Counted from the stretch's first letter, positions 44,519 to 59,953 are shown. The stretch: 64,000 nucleotides of DNA from Planctomycetota bacterium (GCA_965223845.1 CBDCXR010000004.1:5824001-5888000), one strand, 5' to 3'. Notes: a model not told the origin generated them from the letters alone. Program-made: numbers and translations.

Positions 44519-46555
44519 GTGAAAACGATCACTTTCCTCGCCGTGGTTGCTTCTGTTCCGCTCCTCGCGCAGTCGACCGCCGAGCCGTACGAGCTCGGCC
44601 CCGACTCGGAGCGACGACAGGGCGTCCCCCGCGGGGAGGTGAGCCGGCACGTCTGGGAGAGCGAGGTCTTTCCGGGCACTGTGCGCGAGTACTCCCTCTA
44701 CGTACCCGAGCAGTACGACGGGGAGCGCGCGGCCTGCGTTATGGTGTTTCAGGATGGGCACGCCTACGTGAGCGAGACCGGCCAATTCCGTGTCCCCATC
44801 GTCTTTGACAACTTGATTCACCGCGGTGAGATGCCGATCACGATCGGGATTTTCATCAATCCCGGCCATCACGCGAAAGCGTCGGCGACGGGCGGCGATC
44901 GATTCCCGGAGAATCGCTGGCGATCGAGCAATCGATCCTTCGAGTACGATCGGCTCTCCGACCAGTACTCGCGCTTCCTTCTCGAAGAGATCCTTCCCGC
45001 CGTCGGCGAGAAGTACAAACTGCGCACCGATCCGCGCGGCCGAGCGATCTGCGGGATCAGCTCCGGCGGCATCTGCGCGTTCACTGCGGCGTGGGAGAGA
45101 CCCGAAGAGTTTCACAAGGTGCTGAGTCACGTCGGGAGCTTCACCAACATCCGCGGCGGCCACAACTATCCAGCGATCATTCGAAAAACGAAACCGGCGA
45201 AGCCGATCCGGGTCTTCCTTCAGGGCGGGGAGAAGGACCTCAACAACTCCCACGGGAATTGGTGGCTGGCGAACCTCCAAATGGAGAGTGCGCTCCGCTT
45301 CGCCGGATACGAAACGAAGTTCGTCGGCGGAGTCGGCGGACACAACGGGATCCACGGCGGCGCGATCCTGCCCGATTCGCTCCGTTGGTTGTGGCGAGAC
45401 GAGGTCGCGACGGTACCTGCAGCTGCGGCTCGACTTTCACCGGAGAAGCTTGCCGGGATCGATCCTGCGGTCGAAGCCCTCATCGATGAGGGACGCTACA
45501 AGGGTGCGATCACGGTAGTCGCGCGCGGCGGCAAGATCGCGCACTTTCGGGCGTTCGGTGACCTGCGATCGGACTCGATCCTGCGCATCTACTCGATGAC
45601 GAAGCCGATCGTGAGCGTCGCCGTGATGATGCTCGTAGAGGCGGGAAAGGTCGCGATCGACGATCCGGTCGCGAACTACCTTCCGGAGTTTGCGCGAGTC
45701 CGCGTCTTCGAGAGCGGCGAGCGTGTCTCGCCCCGTCGCCCTCCGACCGTACGCGATCTCCTCCGTCACACGGCCGGTCTCACCTACGGTTCATTCAGCG
45801 ACTCGCCGGTCGACAAGCTCTATCGCGAAGCGGATCTCCTCCGGCGCGATCATACGATCGAGAGCATGGTGTCCGAGCTCTGCGAGCTGCCGCTCCTCTA
45901 TCATCCGGGTGAACGCTGGCACTACTCGGTCAGCGTCGACGTCCTCGGCGCCGTCGTCGAGGCCGCTTCCGGCGAGGCGCTCGATGGTTTCCTTCGCACG
46001 CGGATCTTCGAGCCCCTCGGCATGCGGGACACTGGCTTCGCGGTGTCGGAAGCTCAGCGGTCGCGCTTCGCGACCAACTACGGGCCTGAGCACGACGGAA
46101 GCGGACTCCGCGTGATCGACGATCCGGCGCAGAGCCGCTATCTCACGACTCCGAAGTTTCTCTCCGGCGGTGGTGGACTCGTCTCGACGGCGGACGATTA
46201 CCTCAAGTTCGCGCTCGTGCTCGCTGGTGGCGGCGAATGGGGCGGGGTGCGACTTCTCGAAACGGCGACGGTCGCCGAAATGACACGAAATCAACTTTCC
46301 GAGAGTCTGCTTCCCATCGCGATCGGATCTCCGCGTCCCGGGACGGGGTTCGGTCTCGGCGTCTCGGTCCGCGTCGCGGAAGAACCGCGGGCGCGCCGCG
46401 GCGAGTACGGTTGGGGAGGGCTGGCGAGCACTCAGTTCTGGGTGTCGCCGGAGACTGGCCTCGTCGTCCTCACGCTCGCGCAGCACATTCCGTACACCGA
46501 TACGATCCAGCGTCGCGTCCTTCCGATCGTGTACGACGCGGTGGCCGAAAACTGA
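44519..46555 (+). CDS. Secreted fusion: enterochelin-esterase-like alpha/beta hydrolase + beta-lactamase-family serine hydrolase
   Basis: AGGAG SD and signal peptide; MVFQDG, GISSG nucleophile elbow, GGHNG; then YSMTKP (SxxK), LLRHTAGL, WHYS, GGGLVST, YGWGG. Confidence 0.87.
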   Translation: MKTITFLAVVASVPLLAQSTAEPYELGPDSERRQGVPRGEVSRHVWESEVFPGTVREYSLYVPEQYDGERAACVMVFQDGHAYVSETGQFRVPIVFDNLIHRGEMPITIGIFINPGHHAKASATGGDRFPENRWRSSNRSFEYDRLSDQYSRFLLEEILPAVGEKYKLRTDPRGRAICGISSGGICAFTAAWERPEEFHKVLSHVGSFTNIRGGHNYPAIIRKTKPAKPIRVFLQGGEKDLNNSHGNWWLANLQMESALRFAGYETKFVGGVGGHNGIHGGAILPDSLRWLWRDEVATVPAAAARLSPEKLAGIDPAVEALIDEGRYKGAITVVARGGKIAHFRAFGDLRSDSILRIYSMTKPIVSVAVMMLVEAGKVAIDDPVANYLPEFARVRVFESGERVSPRRPPTVRDLLRHTAGLTYGSFSDSPVDKLYREADLLRRDHTIESMVSELCELPLLYHPGERWHYSVSVDVLGAVVEAASGEALDGFLRTRIFEPLGMRDTGFAVSEAQRSRFATNYGPEHDGSGLRVIDDPAQSRYLTTPKFLSGGGGLVSTADDYLKFALVLAGGGEWGGVRLLETATVAEMTRNQLSESLLPIAIGSPRPGTGFGLGVSVRVAEEPRARRGEYGWGGLASTQFWVSPETGLVVLTLAQHIPYTDTIQRRVLPIVYDAVAEN

Positions 46556-46574: not shown

Positions 46575-49500
46575 TCACTCGCACGGCGGAAAGAACTCGC
46601 ACTCGAGCTCGTCCGCGGTCGGGTCGAATCCGCAGAAGGGATAGAACGGCGCCGGCGGTGCGGATCCGGCCATGAACGAGTAGCCGAGCGTCCACATCAC
46701 GTCGGAGATGTCGACCTCGCCGTCGTCGTTCGCGTCGGCGGCATCCATGCACTTCGGTGGGCGTCCGTCGACGAAGAGGAAGAGCACGGTCCAGATCGGA
46801 TCGGCGATGTCGAGGAGCGAGTCCGAATTCGCATCGCCGCGGACGAACGCGCGCTCGCCGCGCTCGATCGTAACCTGGAACGTACACGTCGACTCGTTCC
46901 CTGCGGCGTCGCGCGCGCGGCAAGTGATCGTGTGCTCGCCGAGCGTGAGGCGACTTCCCGATGGCGGATTGCAGTCGATGAACACCTCGTCGTCGCCCGC
47001 GCAGAGATCCGTCGCGGTCGGGGCATTGAAGGTGACGATCGTCGTACAGGGAATCGGTCCGCGCTCGTTCGTCGGCGGCCAGCCCGGCGGCTTCTGCGCT
47101 TCTTCGCCCACGGAATCGCATTCGAGGAAGAGATCGACGAGGTCGTCGCAGAGAATCTCGGGTGCCGTGCGATCGATGACGGTCACGGTGAATGAGCACT
47201 CGGCTTCGTTCCCTTCGGCGTCCGTCGCCACGCAGGTCACGGTCGTCTGGCCGACCGGAAAGAGGCTTCCCGAGGCCGGAGTGCACACGACCGCGACGTC
47301 GGGATCGCAGGCGTCTTCCGCGGCGACGTCAAAGTCGACGACCGCACCTTCCCCCGAGGTACACTCCGTGACGATCGGCTCGGGACAAGTGAGCGCGGGC
47401 GGCGTGGTATCGACGACGTTCACGACGAACGAGCATTGCGTCGAATTGCCCGAGCTGTCGGTCGAGGTGCAGACGACCTCGGTCTCGCCGAGCGGGAAGA
47501 TTGTCCCCGAGGGCGGAACGCATTCGACCGGAGGTTGGCCGTCGCACGCGTCATTGCTCACCGGGAGGTCGTACTCGACGAGCGCGCCGCCCTCGCGGTC
47601 GCACTGAACCATCATCGTCGGTGGACAGATGAGCTCGGGCGCGACCTCGTCGACGACCGTGATCGTGAACTCGCAGCTCGCCGAGTTCCCGGACGCGTCG
47701 GTTGCGGTACACGTAACGACGTGCGATCCCGGCGGAAGGACACTCCCCGAGGGAGGATCGCACTCGACGACGGGACGCGGATCGCAGTCGTCGGCGGCTG
47801 CCGGCAGCGGAAACTCGACGACCGAGCCTCCGTCCTCGGTGCAGGAGCGCTCGAACCCTTCAGGACATTCGATCGTCGGCGGCGTGTTGTCGAACACGGT
47901 GACGCTAAAGGAGCACATCGACTCGTTCCCGAGATTGTCGGTCGCAGTGCACTCAACGACCGTGACGCCGAGCGGGAAGAGACTCCCCGACGGAGGCACG
48001 CATTCGACGACGGGGTTCGGATCGCCGGAGTCCGACGCGGTGACGTCGAAGCTGACGACCGCGCCGTCGGCCGATGTGCAGTGCGCCTCGATGTCGCTCG
48101 GGCACTCGATCATCGGCGGGCCGGAGTCGGTCACGATGACGTTAAACGAGCATTCGATGACGTTTCCGCCTTGATCGTCGGCGGTGCAGGTGACGACCGT
48201 CGTCCCGATCGGAAACATGCTCCCCGACGGGGGAAGGCACGAGAGGTTCGGGGCGGGATCGCAGTTGTCGTTCGTCACTGGCGTCGTGTACTCGACCACC
48301 GCGCCTTCGGGACTCGTCGCTTCGGTCGTGATGTCGCCGACGCAGAGGAGCTCCGGCACTTCCACGTCGACGACCTCGATGTCGAACGTGCACTCCGAGG
48401 CGTTTCCGCTCGCATCGGTCGCCGTGCACGTGACGCTGTTTACGCCGAGAGGGATGACCGCGCCGCTCGGCGGGTCGCACACGAGGACCGGATCGGCGTC
48501 GCATGCATCGAAGACGACGGGAAGCGGATACTGCACTTTGCCACCGTCGTCGCATTCGACGACGATCGCTTCGGGCGGGCAGACGATCATCGGCGGAGTT
48601 CGGTCGACGACGGTGACGTCGAACGAACATTCCGCTGAGTTTCCGGCCGCATCGGTCGCGGTACAGACGACGGTCGTCACTCCGACGTCGAAGTTTGAAC
48701 CGGACGGAGGGTCGCAGGTGGCAGTCACGGAAGTGTCACACTGGTCCACGGCGCTGACCTCGAACATGACGACCGATCCTTCGGCCGATTCGCACTCGTA
48801 CGTGAAGCTCTCGGGGCAATGGATGGCGGGCGGAAGCGTATCGACGACGGAGACGGAGAACTCGCTCTCGCTTTCGTTCCCGAACTGATCGGTCGCGCGG
48901 CAGGTCACCACCGTGACGCCCGGTAGAAACACCGATCCGCGCGGAGGGTCGCATTCGACCGCGGGTGATGGGTCGCACGCGTCGACGGCCGTTACCGAGA
49001 AGTCGACGGGAGTTCCGCCCGGACCCGCGCACTCGACGATGAGGTCGGCGGGCGCGACGATCTGCGGCGGCGAGAGATCGTCGACCGTCACCGAGAACTC
49101 GCAACTCATCTCGTTTCCGCTCGAGTCCGTCGCCGTGCAGGTGACGAGCGTCGTTCCCATCGGGAAGAACGAGCCCGACGGCGGATCGCACGCGATGGTG
49201 ACGTCGCCGTCGCACTCACCGACGACCACGGGTGCGGGGTAGTCGACGGTGGCGCCGTCGACGCTGTCGCAGTCGACGAGGACATCTTCAAGGCAAACGA
49301 TAGCCGGAGGTGCTTCGTCGACGACGACCACCTCGAATGAGCACTCGGACGAATTCCCCGAGGAGTCGGTCGCGGTGCAAGTCACGGTCGTCGTTCCGGG
49401 CTGGAACGCGCTTCCCGATGGTGGCTCACAGACGATCGTCACTCCGCCGTCCCCGCAGGCGTCGGTCGCCATCGGAGACGGAAACTCGACCTCGACGCCG

Positions 49501-51308
49501 CCTCCGACGGGGCCATCGGCGCTGCAGGAAACTTCGATCGGCCCCTGCGGACAGGTGATCCGCGGCGGGGTCGTATCGCGCACGACAACCGAGAATTCGC
49601 ATTCGGCGCTGTTTCCCGCCTCGTCGGTCGCGACGCAGCGGACGATCGTCTCGCCGAGCGGGAACGCGCTTCCGGACGGCGGGTCGCAAACGACGTCGAC
49701 ATCGGGGTCGCAGCGATCGGAAGCGACCGATCGAAAAAAGACCGGCGTGCCGTTCTCCGATGTGCACTCGACCGTGATGTCGCTTGGGCAAACGACGGCG
49801 GGCGGCGTCGTATCGACGATGTTGACGACGAACTCGCACTGATACATGTCGCCGGCGTCCGTCGTCGCCGTGCAGCGAACGGTGGTTTCGCCGAGGGGAA
49901 AGAGGCTTCCGGACGGCGGATCGCACTCGACGGTCGCCGGCGTCTCGCAGGAGAGACTGAGCATCGGAAGCGGAAACTCGACGGTCGCGCCGCCCGGCTC
50001 CGTCGCTTCGGCGGTGACGTCACCGGCGCAGTAGAGTAGCGGTTCGGCGTCGGCGACGACCTCGACCACAAACGTCGCCTCGGAGGAGTTGCCCGAATCG
50101 TCGCTCGCGACGCAGGTGACGGTGGTCGCGCCGACTGGAAAGACACTTCCGCTCGGCGGGTCGCAAATGATCTCGACGTCGCGATCGCAGATATCGGTCG
50201 CGACCGGCGCGGGATAGTTGACGACGGCGTCATCACCGCCCGCGCAGTCGACGACGATGCGCTCGGCCGGAACGCTGAGCGCCGGAGGAGTCGTATCGAC
50301 GACTTCGACCTCGAACGAGCAGCACTCCTTGTTCCCTTGAAGATCGATCACCTGGCATCGCACCGTCCGGCGACCGAGCGGAAGGATCGTTCCCGGCGGC
50401 GGAAAGCAGATCACCTTCGGGTTCGGATCACAGTCGTCCTCGGCGTGAACGTCGTAGACGATCGCGGCGCCTTCGGGGCACTGGCACTCGAAGGTGAGAA
50501 CGCCTTCGGGGCAGCGAATCGTCGGCGGAGTCGTATCGTCCGGACAGAGCGCGCAATCGCCGGACTCGGGATTCGATCGCCAGACGTCGCGGAGGATGTT
50601 GGCGAGGCGCGCGATCGTGAGCCCGCAGGGATCGCCGCCGCCCGGGCAGCTCGCGAGCTCGCAGAGCGTTTGCGCGGCAGCGAGGAACTCGGAAAGCGGG
50701 GTCGCTTCGGTGACGACGAGCGCGGCATCCGGATCTCCCGCATCCGGATCCGGGACGAAGATCGCGCCGCAGCGAAGGACGACGCGGAAGGGATCGATCC
50801 CGAAACACGAGAGAGTGTTCTCGCTGAGCTTTCCGTCGCCGAAGAGACGCGAGCGGCGGAGGTTGAGCTCCGTCACGAGCGCGTCGGACTTCAGCCAGAC
50901 GCAGGGTTCACCGTCGATCCGATTCGTCCGGAGAATGCGCTGCGCATCCGCGGCAGTCGCGACGACTTCGCCGCACACCGACGGCGGATCGAGTGGATCG
51001 TCCGGCGTCCCGAGCAGCAAGGTCTCGAGCGGATGGTCGTCGAACGACTTGTAGCAGGACCGCGGGTTGGTGCCGTCGTTTGACGGACATGCCCCGGGTC
51101 CACCTCCGTCGCCGGCGTCGAGCGCACCGGCGCCGCCGGCGAGATCGTCGGCCGTCGGACAGCCGAGGTCGATCGGCCCGTCGGCCGAAAGAGGACTCGC
51201 CGCGGAGAACGCGATGGCGGTCATGAGTCCCGCCGCCACTTTCAGAGCGGCCATCCCACGACATCCCCGCACGACGCGCGTCGACGCTTCGTCTCGCATC
51301 ACTCTCAC
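46575..51308 (-). CDS. Large secreted HYR-repeat protein (15 repeats) with C-terminal dockerin-like domain
   Basis: 15 copies of DTTPPxIxCP...CxPPSGSxFPxGxTxVxCxATD...CxFxVxV; tail FVRGDANSD...DANDDG...C. Start uncertain (could be ~51299 or ~51254). Confidence 0.9.
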   Translation of the reverse strand: MRVMRDEASTRVVRGCRGMAALKVAAGLMTAIAFSAASPLSADGPIDLGCPTADDLAGGAGALDAGDGGGPGACPSNDGTNPRSCYKSFDDHPLETLLLGTPDDPLDPPSVCGEVVATAADAQRILRTNRIDGEPCVWLKSDALVTELNLRRSRLFGDGKLSENTLSCFGIDPFRVVLRCGAIFVPDPDAGDPDAALVVTEATPLSEFLAAAQTLCELASCPGGGDPCGLTIARLANILRDVWRSNPESGDCALCPDDTTPPTIRCPEGVLTFECQCPEGAAIVYDVHAEDDCDPNPKVICFPPPGTILPLGRRTVRCQVIDLQGNKECCSFEVEVVDTTPPALSVPAERIVVDCAGGDDAVVNYPAPVATDICDRDVEIICDPPSGSVFPVGATTVTCVASDDSGNSSEATFVVEVVADAEPLLYCAGDVTAEATEPGGATVEFPLPMLSLSCETPATVECDPPSGSLFPLGETTVRCTATTDAGDMYQCEFVVNIVDTTPPAVVCPSDITVECTSENGTPVFFRSVASDRCDPDVDVVCDPPSGSAFPLGETIVRCVATDEAGNSAECEFSVVVRDTTPPRITCPQGPIEVSCSADGPVGGGVEVEFPSPMATDACGDGGVTIVCEPPSGSAFQPGTTTVTCTATDSSGNSSECSFEVVVVDEAPPAIVCLEDVLVDCDSVDGATVDYPAPVVVGECDGDVTIACDPPSGSFFPMGTTLVTCTATDSSGNEMSCEFSVTVDDLSPPQIVAPADLIVECAGPGGTPVDFSVTAVDACDPSPAVECDPPRGSVFLPGVTVVTCRATDQFGNESESEFSVSVVDTLPPAIHCPESFTYECESAEGSVVMFEVSAVDQCDTSVTATCDPPSGSNFDVGVTTVVCTATDAAGNSAECSFDVTVVDRTPPMIVCPPEAIVVECDDGGKVQYPLPVVFDACDADPVLVCDPPSGAVIPLGVNSVTCTATDASGNASECTFDIEVVDVEVPELLCVGDITTEATSPEGAVVEYTTPVTNDNCDPAPNLSCLPPSGSMFPIGTTVVTCTADDQGGNVIECSFNVIVTDSGPPMIECPSDIEAHCTSADGAVVSFDVTASDSGDPNPVVECVPPSGSLFPLGVTVVECTATDNLGNESMCSFSVTVFDNTPPTIECPEGFERSCTEDGGSVVEFPLPAAADDCDPRPVVECDPPSGSVLPPGSHVVTCTATDASGNSASCEFTITVVDEVAPELICPPTMMVQCDREGGALVEYDLPVSNDACDGQPPVECVPPSGTIFPLGETEVVCTSTDSSGNSTQCSFVVNVVDTTPPALTCPEPIVTECTSGEGAVVDFDVAAEDACDPDVAVVCTPASGSLFPVGQTTVTCVATDAEGNEAECSFTVTVIDRTAPEILCDDLVDLFLECDSVGEEAQKPPGWPPTNERGPIPCTTIVTFNAPTATDLCAGDDEVFIDCNPPSGSRLTLGEHTITCRARDAAGNESTCTFQVTIERGERAFVRGDANSDSLLDIADPIWTVLFLFVDGRPPKCMDAADANDDGEVDISDVMWTLGYSFMAGSAPPAPFYPFCGFDPTADELECEFFPPCE

Positions 51309-51538
51309 CCTTTCGCGAGTCTCTCGCTCGGCCTCAGCCGATCCGCGCGCGCGGATCAGCGGTACCCGAGCGCCCTATCCTTCGACTCGCAGGATACGGC
51401 CCGCGGCGGGCGCACAACAACCCCGACGCGCAGAGCGGCGCTCGCGGCGACGCGTTCCGGTTCGTCAAACGTTTGGGTTCCGCGCGCCGAGAAACTCGGA
51501 TCCACTCGGCGCGCGTAGCTCGAGATTCAAGCCGGGAG

Positions 51539-52867
51539 TCAGAATTTGACGGTCACGGAGCGGCGCTCTCCCTTTCGAAGAACGTCGAGCCGGAGCACGG
51601 ACCCGGGGCGATAGTGGTTCAGCCGCAGGTACGCGTGAAACTCGCCCTCGGAGCGATGCTCGGTGTGACCGTCGTAGCCGACGATCACGTCACCTTTCTT
51701 GAGGCCCGAACGGCGTACGGCCGAGCCGAAGATTCCGCGGACGTTCAGCGCGAGCTGGTTCGCCGCGATGCCCCGCTCCTTTTTCGCGTCCGGCTTGAAC
51801 GCTTGCACCCAGAGTCCAGGCGACGGCGGCATTCCGTACATCGAACCGCGCCAGGAGAGATTCCCCTCTCGCCATTTTCCCGAGAGCGCGAGCGTCGCGG
51901 CGATGGTTCCGCCGTCGCGTTTCAGCGTCGCGGGGAGCTCCGTCTTGACCGGAAGGTGATGCAGCACGAACTGCACGTCGGCGAAGGAGAGGATCTTTTG
52001 GCCGCCGAGTGTGTCGAGCTCGTCGCCCGGACGGATTCCCGCTCGGGCCGCCGCTGAGTCGGGAACGACCCGCTCGACGCGGCGTCCACCGGTCCTCTCG
52101 AGGACGACGCCGACGGAATCGGGAAGCGGATACTTCCAAAGCTTCCGCGGATCGTACGTCCCCGCGTCGAGGGCGACGTCGTGAAACGCGTCGTAGACGT
52201 TGTGGCAGTGGATGCACTGCTCGCGCCCCGGCTTCCGGGCGAGGATCTTTCGGATGCGCTTCGAAGGGATCTCCTTCACGAGGCGAACCTTCGGCGACGG
52301 TCCCTTCTTCGCCGCGAAGAAGTCGCGGTTCTTCGGATAACGAGAGTGCTCCTCGAGCACGCGCTCCATCGTCTTCGTGAGACCGGCGACGGAGTTGATC
52401 GCCATCGGCCCTTCCTTCGTGCGACTCCCGTACCTCGCGAATACGGTTCCGTCGGAGTGAAGAAAGAGCGCCGCCCAGGTGAGGTCGAAGTCGAATTGAT
52501 GCTGCGCGAGGTCGAGATCGTTCATGCGAACGATGCGGACGCAGACGAACTTCTCGGTCAGCTTCCTCAGCTTCGGATCGCGACGGACAACCTGCCCGTC
52601 AAAGCCTTTGCAGGTCTCTCACGGCACTCACCGAAAGAGGAGAAAGATCGGCTTCTTTTCTCGCGCAGCTTTCGCGCGGGCCGCCTCCCAATCGCCGTAG
52701 ATCCAGTGCGAAGCGATCTCGTCGCCGAGTTCGCGCTGGAGGGAGTCGGCGCCGTCCTGGGCCGGCGCGACTGAAGAAAGTGCGCCGGTGAGAATTCCGA
52801 GCGTGCCGAGCGCGATGAGCGCGCGCAGCGTCCTTCGGGATAAGGAAGATGAGTGCGAACGCGACAT
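51539..52867 (-). CDS. Trx-like/CxxCH/PDZ domain selenoprotein with two in-frame UGA (Sec) codons
   Basis: ORFs 52628..52888 and 51539..52525 are in one frame. The linker reads KKPIFLLFR-TGA-V-P-TGA-ETCKGFDGQVVRRDPKLRKLTEKFVCVRIVR-MND... TGA at 52630-52628 and 52621-52619. GGAGGT SD before ATG 52867, signal peptide, CIHCH, two PDZ-like domains. Confidence 0.85.
52582..52600 (-). promoter_or_regulatory. Candidate bacterial SECIS hairpin
   Basis: mRNA GACGGGCA-GGU-UGUCCGUC (8-bp stem with one G-U, loop starting with G). The stem begins 18 nt after the second UGA. Confidence 0.55.
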
Positions 52868-53003
52868 GCGAACCTCCGGGGAAATCACACGGCATCGAGT
52901 GTCGCGCTAGTTCGGCCGATGATCAATGAAGATTCGTTCGTCGAAGGCAGTGTGGCCCCGGCTCTGTGCGCAGGCCGGTCCCGAGCGCGCGTAATGCGAA
53001 GTG

Positions 53004-58483: not shown

Positions 58484-59953
58484 ATGCTCGTCATTCCGGG
58501 CGACCAAGGACGGGTTACGTGCGACGGACTTTCGCGGCGCGAGCTGCTCCGGATCGGAGGCTCCGCGCTACTGGGCCTGAGTCTCCCGCAGCTCCTCGAG
58601 CTTCAGGCCGCATCGGCGGCTTCCGTCGCCGGGAAGTTTTCCGGGGCGGCGGGCTTCGGTAAGGCGAAGAGCGTCATCCTGATTTACCTCCAGGGCGGAC
58701 CGAGCCACCTCGACCTCTGGGACCCGAAGACGGACGTCCCGAGCGATGTGAAGAGCATCTTCAAGCCCATCAAGTCGAAGGTGCCCGGGATGGAAGTCAC
58801 CGAGCTCCTCCCGAACCTCGCGAAGGTGACCGACAAGTTCACGTTCATCCGGACGATGAGCTACACGCCGAACGGCCTCTTCAATCACACCGCGGCGATC
58901 TACCAGATGCTGACCGGCTACACCGCGGACAAGGTGAGCCCGTCCGGCCAGCTCGAGCCGCCGACTCCGAAAGACTTTCCGCACGTCGGCTCGAACATCG
59001 CGAAATTGAAGCCGCCGACCGTGCCGATGCTGCCCTTCGTCATGATGCCGCGGCCGCTTCAGGAGAGTAACGTCGTCGGAAAGGGCGGGACGGCCGGTTT
59101 CCTCGGCCGAGCGTACGATCCCTTTACGCTCTACCCGTCGGGCGACGATCTCGACAACTCGAAGATGGACCGGATCAAGATCGACGACCTCACGATGCGC
59201 CAGGAGCTCACGACTCCGCGAATGCGTCGCCGGGCGAATCTCTTGAAGGCGATCAACGGCGGCATGCCGGCGCTCGAGAAGGCCGTCGCGAAGTACGATC
59301 TCAATCAGTACACCGAGAAGGCGCTCAGCCTCGTTCTTTCGGGACGTGCGCGGAACGCGTTCGATCTCAAGCAAGAACCGGACAAGCTTCGCGACGAGTA
59401 CGGCCGAACGACCTTCGGTCAGTGCTGTCTCCTCGCGCGTCGCCTCGTCGAATCGGGCACGCGCTTCGTCGAGGTGAACTGGCCGAAGATCGCGAACTCC
59501 GATCGCCACTCGTGGGACGTCCACGTCGGGCTCCCCGATCGGATGAAGAAGCTCTCCGGGCCGATGCTCGACCCGGGACTCGCGACCTTGATTCGCGATC
59601 TCGACGACCGCGGGCTTCTCGACGACACGCTCGTCGTCGCCGTCGGCGAGTTCGGCCGCAGCCCGAAGCGCGGCATCAGCACCTCCGGAAACGGAAACTC
59701 CGCCGACGGACGCGACCACTGGCCGTACTGCTACACCGCCGTCGTCGCCGGCGGCGGCGTGAAGCGGGGAAACGTCTACGGTCAATCGGACGCGACCGCG
59801 TCGGGCCCCATCGACAATCCGGTCAGCCCCCAAAACCTGCTCGCTACGATCTACCACGCGATGGGTCTCGACCCGCACATGATGATCTACAACCACCTCA
59901 ATCAGCCTCGGGAGATGGTGCAGGGCGATCCGGTCCTCGACCTCTTCGCCTGA
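58484..59953 (+). CDS. DUF1501 domain protein
   Basis: SRRELL Tat-like motif, [43 protein letters not shown]. Confidence 0.9.

Follow-up and report, generated by a model that had tools for sequence, protein, structure and literature searches.

The window analysed here is a 64,000-nucleotide stretch of DNA from a Planctomycetota bacterium. On its minus strand, to which all coordinates in the window given below refer, a frame of 442 codons begins with an ATG at 52867 and ends with the stop codon TGA at 51541-51539. This coding sequence (51539..52867, stop included) is defined by frame reading and by a match to the NF041199 profile. A Shine-Dalgarno-like GGAGG (52873..52877) lies 5 nt 5' of the ATG, and translation might alternatively begin at an in-frame GTG at 52888. 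The frame is interrupted only twice, by a TGA at 52630-52628 (codon 80) and a TGA at 52621-52619 (codon 83), in the context K-P-I-F-L-L-F-R-U-V-P-U-E-T-C. The first-pass annotation had described two TGA codons three codons apart in an otherwise continuous 442-residue frame, and the reading of the frame bears this out. The neighbours are a HYR-repeat protein, an esterase/beta-lactamase fusion, a DUF1501 protein and unassigned ORFs, with no functional link to the gene. A promoter and terminator scan returned 0 sites, and a search for the stretch in sequencing runs listed no RNA runs among those that contain it. No Rfam family came near its gathering score between 51400 and 53000; the best match, a SAH-riboswitch-like hit within the signal-peptide codons (22.9 against 37 bits, E 0.13), was rejected.

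When the two TGA codons are read through, the protein matches the NCBIfam family NF041199, Trx7/PDZ domain-containing (seleno)protein, at 414.6 bits for a cut-off of 300. Residues 54-441 cover positions 1-389 of the 390 in the profile, and the score read from DNA is 398.3 bits. The architecture is also that of the family: a Thioredoxin_7 domain is followed by two PDZ domains, and the [C/U]-x-x-[C/U] motif stands after a strand ending in F-R. NF041199 is the planctomycete Trx/PDZ (seleno)protein with CxPC to which the first-pass annotation had referred. The Thioredoxin_7 match comprises residues 55-116 (52520..52705; Pfam PF13899, E 7.6e-12), and the modelled fold extends further. PDZ domain 1 comprises residues 261-303 (51959..52087; Pfam PDZ_6 and PDZ, Foldseek DegP/DegQ) and PDZ domain 2 residues 382-441 (51545..51724; Pfam PDZ_2, E 3.6e-15). 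An AlphaFold model built on a 19-row alignment has a pLDDT of 83 and a pTM of 0.79. In a PDB profile search, positions 43-145 were matched to the disulphide isomerase 3fk8, and this search together with Foldseek matched the PDZ tandem to DegP, DegQ and RseP. The likeness to DegP/DegQ (HtrA) and RseP lies in the PDZ tandem, for which they are the best structural and sequence matches, and in the periplasmic setting. In contrast to DegP/DegQ, which have a protease domain, the protein has a thioredoxin-like domain in its place. No trypsin-like protease domain was found; TIGR02037 reaches 58.2 bits against 416.2 and is matched only over profile positions 255-360, which are PDZ.

The N-terminus (residues 1 to about 36, SRRTLRALIALGTLGILTGALSSVAPA/QD, 52760..52867) looks by eye like the signal peptide that had been proposed for it, with a helix at residues 9-30 in the model, and similar N-termini are seen by eye in relatives. 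Export of the protein is therefore plausible. The RR-x-hydrophobic pattern occurs in only 9 of 128 N-termini of relatives, which suggests, again by eye, that export is probably mostly of the Sec type. Between the thioredoxin-like and PDZ parts lies C-I-H-C-H (residues 218-222, 52202..52216), also described in the first-pass annotation. The C.HCH pattern is present in 128 of 129 relatives and C..CH in all 129. No cytochrome family was detected around this motif: residues 170-260 searched alone gave as best hits PSCyt3 (E 0.12) and a zinc finger (E 0.14), neither anywhere near its cut-off, and the PDB profile search yielded no relative for the linker. As far as the sequence goes, CxHCH could attach haem, form a second redox pair or bind a metal.

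How widespread is the double-TGA form? A survey of 401 genomes of the phylum, the studied genome included, found the family in 136, in 118 of them over the cut-off. Among the 150 family matches listed (30 further matches fall outside the listing), a hand count gives 73 with two TGA codons, 44 with one, and 33 with no stop. The 129 loci that were read include every one of the 117 matches with a TGA, but only 12 of the 33 that are stop-free, the other 21 being left out; residues 80 and 83 were mapped by local alignment. These loci divide into 73 U-x-x-U, 44 C-x-x-U and 12 C-x-x-C forms, and U-x-x-C was found at none of the 129. The 73 U-x-x-U loci are spread over 62 genomes. The expectation that UxxU is rare holds for the selenoprotein catalogues compared but not for the Trx7/PDZ family in this phylum, where it is the commonest form listed (73 of 150). 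Relatives were also seen in Gemmataceae and Isosphaeraceae MAGs (two matches in a contig scan).

The residues opposite the two codons are clear. An alignment with the 18 full-length homologues from the database, none of which carries a name, shows no variation at R79, C80, P82 or C83, so that all 18 have Cys opposite both TGAs, as had been anticipated; both UGAs are likewise opposite Cys in the 12 Cys-form loci read. UGA1 (52628..52630), at the first position of the redox motif, is TGA in 73 of the 129 loci, and UGA2 (52619..52621), at the second position, in 117. The same two TGAs thus recur in 73 loci, in 62 of 401 genomes, opposite Cys in every full-length homologue, which agrees with the earlier argument that chance nonsense mutations at exactly these codons are unlikely. 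Cys86, the third position of U-x-x-U-x-x-C, is kept in 116 of 129 loci only and is therefore considered non-essential.

In bacteria, the insertion of selenocysteine (Sec) at a UGA depends on a SECIS whose distance from that codon is constrained; that of E. coli fdhF is a known example. In the studied gene, a hairpin with the sequence GACGGGCA-GGU-UGUCCGUC (hairpin B; 52582..52600, 8 bp, -12.1 kcal/mol) was identified as the SECIS by folding and family comparison; the hairpin predicted earlier at 52600-52582 is exactly the conserved one. It comprises nt 30-48 when the U of UGA1 is counted as 0, the distance to the start of its loop is 26 nt from UGA2 and 35 nt from UGA1, and it codes for D-G-Q-V-V-R. 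A hairpin of -4 kcal/mol or lower, with a loop G at position 1-2 and GU, is present at this site in all 73 U-x-x-U and all 44 C-x-x-U genes. Among the Cys forms, 9 of 12 have a hairpin at the site, 4 of these with the loop G. Mean energies are -11.6 kcal/mol (U-x-x-U), -10.3 (C-x-x-U) and -4.4 (C-x-x-C), compared with -5.9, -5.3 and -4.1, respectively, in synonymous-codon resamples. In a gap-free alignment of the 73 U-x-x-U genes, 90.9% of the cells of helix B are paired and 5 of 7 pairs have changes on both sides, while the amino acids vary with the pairs (D-G-Q-V-V-R, D-A-Q-V-A-R, D-E-Q-V-A-R, and others). For the whole two-hairpin structure in these 73 genes, the covariation score is above those of 500 of 500 shuffles and of all slid registers. 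Taken alone, the studied sequence folds no better than its dinucleotide shuffles (z -0.72, 47 of 200 as good), and its two hairpins fall only in the 7% and 6% tails of the synonymous resamples; the support for the hairpins therefore comes from the comparison.

The bacterial SECIS model, after Zhang and Gladyshev and as set out in the passages compared (PMC13188914), has a loop of 3-9 nt, a stem of 4-16 bp, a G in loop position 1-2, a location 16-37 nt after the UGA, and an energy of -7.5 kcal/mol or lower. Against this model, hairpin B fits on every point, whether the spacing is taken from UGA2 (26 nt) or from UGA1 (35 nt). It resembles the consensus in its 3-nt loop GGU, 8-bp stem, first-position G, energy of -12.1 kcal/mol and spacing. 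The consensus in these passages has no second abutting hairpin, whereas in the studied gene one stands between the SECIS and the two UGAs, and it is specific to genes with both of these codons. Counted from the U of their UGA, the loops of three further selenoprotein candidates in this genome (GPx, CxU-Trx and UshA-like) start at +28 (GUC), +23 (CGUGA) and +28 (GUU). The loop of hairpin B, at +28/29 from the U of UGA2, is similarly placed.

The second hairpin (hairpin A; 52601..52619, -5.6 kcal/mol) was likewise identified by folding and family comparison. It occupies nt 11-29 on the same count, so that helices A and B abut. Its loop, which contains the UGC of Cys86, starts 16 nt downstream of UGA1 and 7 nt downstream of UGA2. 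The first-pass annotation had predicted CAAA-GGC-UUUG at this location; the location stands, but the comparison supports a different register, AGAG.CCU-GCAA-AGG.CUUU (52619-52601). Some genes, the studied one included, have the register shifted by one. In the majority register, 64.4% of helix A is paired, and 6 of 7 pairs have changed on either side.

The occurrence of hairpin A goes with that of the first UGA. An energy of -4 kcal/mol or lower is reached in 62 of 73 U-x-x-U genes (it is absent at this threshold in the other 11); among C-x-x-U genes the count is 13 of 44, and among C-x-x-C genes 2 of 12. The mean energies are -6.4, -3.0 and -2.0 kcal/mol for U-x-x-U, C-x-x-U and Cys forms, and the difference between the first two has an uncorrected Mann-Whitney p of 1.8e-9. 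Resampling of synonymous codons gives -3.24 against the observed -6.41 kcal/mol for U-x-x-U genes, and -3.09 against -3.04 for C-x-x-U genes. As judged from these resamples, hairpin A is under synonymous-site selection in U-x-x-U genes only. Genes with Ser, Ala, Asn or Phe in place of Cys86 also retain the hairpin.

Does this association survive a correction for shared ancestry? A tree of the 129 proteins was obtained by a quick LG+G4 search, and 48 of its 126 inner branches are unsupported. The three motif states need 22 changes on this tree; if only well-supported branches are considered, the U-x-x-U label must have changed at least 14 times. An independent-pairs test for hairpin A on supported branches gave 13 pairs, with 6.1 in the expected direction, 1.7 against and 5.2 without a difference, which is not significant (median p about 0.2). 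When unsupported branches are included, 20 sister contrasts between U-x-x-U and C-x-x-U genes have the more stable hairpin A in the U-x-x-U member in 14.2 cases and in the other member in 5.8. The median difference in these contrasts is -2.9 kcal/mol and the median Wilcoxon p 0.023 (range 0.006-0.21). No such difference is seen for hairpin B. After phylogenetic control, the association of hairpin A with the double UGA appears real but is not yet proven.

What is the role of hairpin A? One proposal, the main rival to the reading favoured below, is a tandem arrangement in which hairpin A would be a SelB-binding SECIS for UGA1, at 16 nt, and hairpin B would serve UGA2 only. This would account for the tie between hairpin A and UGA1, the 16-nt spacing equals the lower limit of the 16-37 nt range published in the passages compared (PMC13188914), and a G stands at loop position 1-2 in 54 of the 62 A hairpins that are stable. 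However, GU is found in only 9 of these 62 loops, compared with 117 of 117 B loops and all three other SECIS candidates of the genome; the loop G is mostly supplied by the conserved UGC codon of Cys86; and -7.5 kcal/mol is reached in only 22 of 73 U-x-x-U genes. For these three reasons, hairpin A is not regarded as a second copy of hairpin B. Moreover, hairpin B already fits the published model, in the passages compared, for UGA1 at 35 nt. The tandem arrangement is thus unlikely, though it keeps an appreciable chance of being correct. We prefer to see hairpin B as the SECIS of both UGAs, with hairpin A as an accessory that would help in decoding the farther one, UGA1.

Which residue is inserted at the two UGA codons? 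The genome (7.93 Mb in 4 contigs, 91.7% complete) carries selB (320 bits), selA (536), selD (308) and tRNA-Sec (68), all over cut-off; the Sec machinery, which the first-pass annotation had set out to be looked for, is therefore in place. ARAGORN assigns the anticodon UCA to the tRNA-Sec and lists 58 tRNAs in the whole genome, among them one UCA tRNA and one tRNA-Cys. In the phylum, selA (E <= 1e-60) is found in 288 of 401 genomes. A hand tabulation by form shows selA in 60 of 62 genomes for U-x-x-U copies, the two exceptions being 67% and 92% complete, in 42 of 43 for C-x-x-U copies, but in only 13 of 30 for stop-free copies. Three genes of the studied genome are NF041199 members over cut-off, namely the studied gene, a second double-TGA gene with U-I-P-U (C4:861952-863145), and a C-V-P-C paralogue (C4:324650-325825).

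Sec is predicted here from sequence, and one or both UGAs could instead be read as Cys by a tRNA-ReC/SelC*-like tRNA in a SECIS-dependent manner or by a near-cognate tRNA-Cys, so that the product would be C-x-x-U or C-x-x-C. In the passages compared, this possibility was raised for UXXU hydrogenases, and such tRNAs were reported to be enriched in UXXU genomes (PMC13582414). The studied genome offers little basis for it. Its one UCA tRNA is called as tRNA-SeC and has, by eye, a G before CCA, and ARAGORN finds a single ordinary tRNA-Cys, with anticodon GCA. Seven matches to the tRNA-Sec model are listed, of which the other six are Ser, Leu and Gly tRNAs; thus, no candidate for a Cys-inserting SelC*-type tRNA is seen among them. 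Keeping TGA at codon 80 in 73 loci, together with the hairpin, would also be pointless if TGC made the same protein. Cys insertion is accordingly given a small probability, well below that of the tandem arrangement, and Sec is the residue that we infer at both codons.

Could the TGAs be artefacts? Sequencing error is ruled out because the same codons recur in 62 genomes. In addition, the stretch 52450-52800 is found identical, with both TGAs kept, in assembled Logan contigs of four DNA runs, in line with a check proposed earlier; these runs come from one study, may derive from the source sample, and therefore give no independent support. Genome-wide reassignment of TGA is also ruled out, since the gene itself ends with TGA and homologues have Cys at the aligned positions. 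The least probable alternative, to which we give hardly any weight, is a pseudogene or two separate genes: table 11 does split the frame into two ORFs of 86 and 328 codons, and the protein-database entry for this DNA holds the 328-residue piece only (100% identity, 74% of the query), but the split point falls inside the thioredoxin fold, at the active site, 73 loci from 62 genomes share the same two TGAs, keep an intact frame and score above cut-off over the full length, and the genome has the Sec machinery and a conserved, covarying hairpin downstream. The gene is therefore a genuine one, currently mis-split, and a member of a known selenoprotein family in a predicted two-Sec form. The thioredoxin part is similarly missing in 45 of 63 family matches in the protein database. 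Gene callers split these genes in two, and selenoproteome catalogues thus undercount the double-Sec form.

Taken together, the interpretation of the first-pass annotation is supported: the three conditions that it had named as refuting (no Sec machinery, residues other than Cys in homologues, TGC or TGT in reads) all turned out in its favour, the last by way of the contigs described above. It is highly probable that the gene encodes an exported Trx7/PDZ protein with a U-V-P-U centre, in which both UGAs would be decoded as Sec by SelA, SelB, SelD and tRNA-Sec, with hairpin B as the signal and hairpin A as a helper. The mature protein would have about 405 residues, comprising a thioredoxin-like domain, a helical linker with the invariant CxHCH, and a DegP/DegQ-like PDZ tandem. 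By analogy, the Sec-Sec centre may exchange with cysteines of substrates, which would make the protein a catalyst of the disulphide isomerase or reductase type with a diselenide as its resting state; the diselenide itself is suggested by the motif. The PDZ pair, to judge from the domains, may bind envelope proteins or their C-termini.

With regard to decoding, hairpin A would most likely act while UGA1 is in the A site, when the folded hairpin could keep hairpin B near the ribosome at the mRNA entrance. Once the ribosome has moved 9 nt to UGA2, hairpin A would be unwound. A more specific proposal, which we advance tentatively and at somewhat less than an even chance, is that hairpin A is a dedicated recoding accessory that evolved repeatedly with a second UGA 9 nt upstream, and that it either pulls the SECIS to the ribosome or binds SelB. 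Repeated origin of the two-hairpin module is suggested by the changes of the U-x-x-U label that well-supported branches force. A geometry with one SECIS and an accessory hairpin would, in addition, account for the lack of Sec at the first position alone (0 of 129 loci), and the recoding accessory for Sec always taking the second position before the first.

The family itself is known from published catalogues. It appears in the table of a 2022 review as 'PDZ domain-containing protein, pfam13899, CxxU' (PMC9312934), and two review tables, as compared, give it as CxxU, with one Sec. The GOS study, in the part compared, lists two CxxU selenoproteins as 'putative secreted serine protease MucD' (PMC2398784); judging from their table position and motif, these are probably members of the Trx7/PDZ family. 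The studied gene shares with NF041199 the succession of Trx7 domain, linker and two PDZ domains, a full-length match, and Sec at the second motif position. It differs from the review tables compared in having Sec also at the first position. U-x-x-U is not recorded for this family in the passages compared, whether from published selenoprotein catalogues or from papers that mention UxxU. The double-Sec form, common in the phylum, is missing from these sources.

Two known systems resemble this arrangement. In UXXU Group 4 [NiFeSe] hydrogenases, two UGAs three codons apart also replace CxxC, CXXU and UXXU alternate on the tree, and one downstream SECIS has been proposed for both codons, according to the passages compared (PMC13582414, 2026). 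By contrast, their motif provides metal ligands in the cytoplasm and belongs to a protein of no relation to this one, and an extra hairpin linked to UGA1 is absent from those passages (PMC13582414). A further parallel is found outside bacteria, where U-x-x-U likewise takes the place of C-x-x-C. Eukaryotic SelL, reportedly described by Shchedrina et al. in 2007, is said to have a UxxU diselenide in a Prx/Trx-like fold. SelL is alike in carrying this motif in a thioredoxin-like fold, where a diselenide is expected, but it differs in its eukaryotic 3'-UTR SECIS and is not known to have PDZ domains.

Since the SECIS must lie at a constrained distance, two UGAs three codons apart offer a natural way to probe how much latitude that distance allows. 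On a single tree, the family provides 73 independent-looking examples with two UGAs, 44 relatives with one UGA, and Cys forms; with the hairpin that follows the extra UGA, these make the question of distance directly testable. Selenoproteome catalogues undercount the double-Sec genes through the splitting by gene callers. An exported U-x-x-U thioredoxin fold with PDZ domains, if true, would be a rare bacterial case of a diselenide redox centre, and a two-hairpin recoding module, if true, would make a distant UGA readable.

A short way 3' of the stop codon of the main gene, the two-UGA Trx7/PDZ (seleno)protein gene, lies a GC-rich inverted repeat (CGCGCGCCGAG ... CUCGGCGCGCG; window 51473-51525). 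A T-run is absent from it and the terminator scan returned no site; its match to a miRNA model was put down to chance. Further downstream, on the same minus strand, 46575-51308 encodes a protein of 1577 aa that combines 13 HYR-domain stretches with Ig-like domains. The plus strand encodes a 678-aa fusion of an esterase with a beta-lactamase fold (44519-46555) and a DUF1501 protein (58484-59953).

Outside the window, ARAGORN called two tRNAs with anticodon CUA ('tRNA-Pyl') on contig C4 of the source genome, G000, at 1643846-1643919 (complement) and 6791124-6791203. They may decode amber codons, or the calls may be false.

Is hairpin B, the proposed SECIS, confined to the main gene? In three of the four sequencing runs whose assembled contigs contain the main-gene stretch, the contig breaks at window 52583-52614, and a 30-32-nt word spanning the hairpin is also present in a separate 2820-nt contig. 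Judging by this shared word, an identical putative SECIS word seems to be present elsewhere in the sample, in a different gene or a different organism.

In several Cys forms of the family (L035, L040, L047, and others), a weak hairpin still folds at the position of hairpin B, with a loop that lacks G, such as AACU; these hairpins may be SECIS remnants or precursors. G000 itself contains, alongside two U-x-x-U copies, a Cys-form paralogue with the motif F-R-C-V-P-C (L020, C4:324650-325825); which of the two versions, Sec or Cys, is used may depend on the selenium supply.
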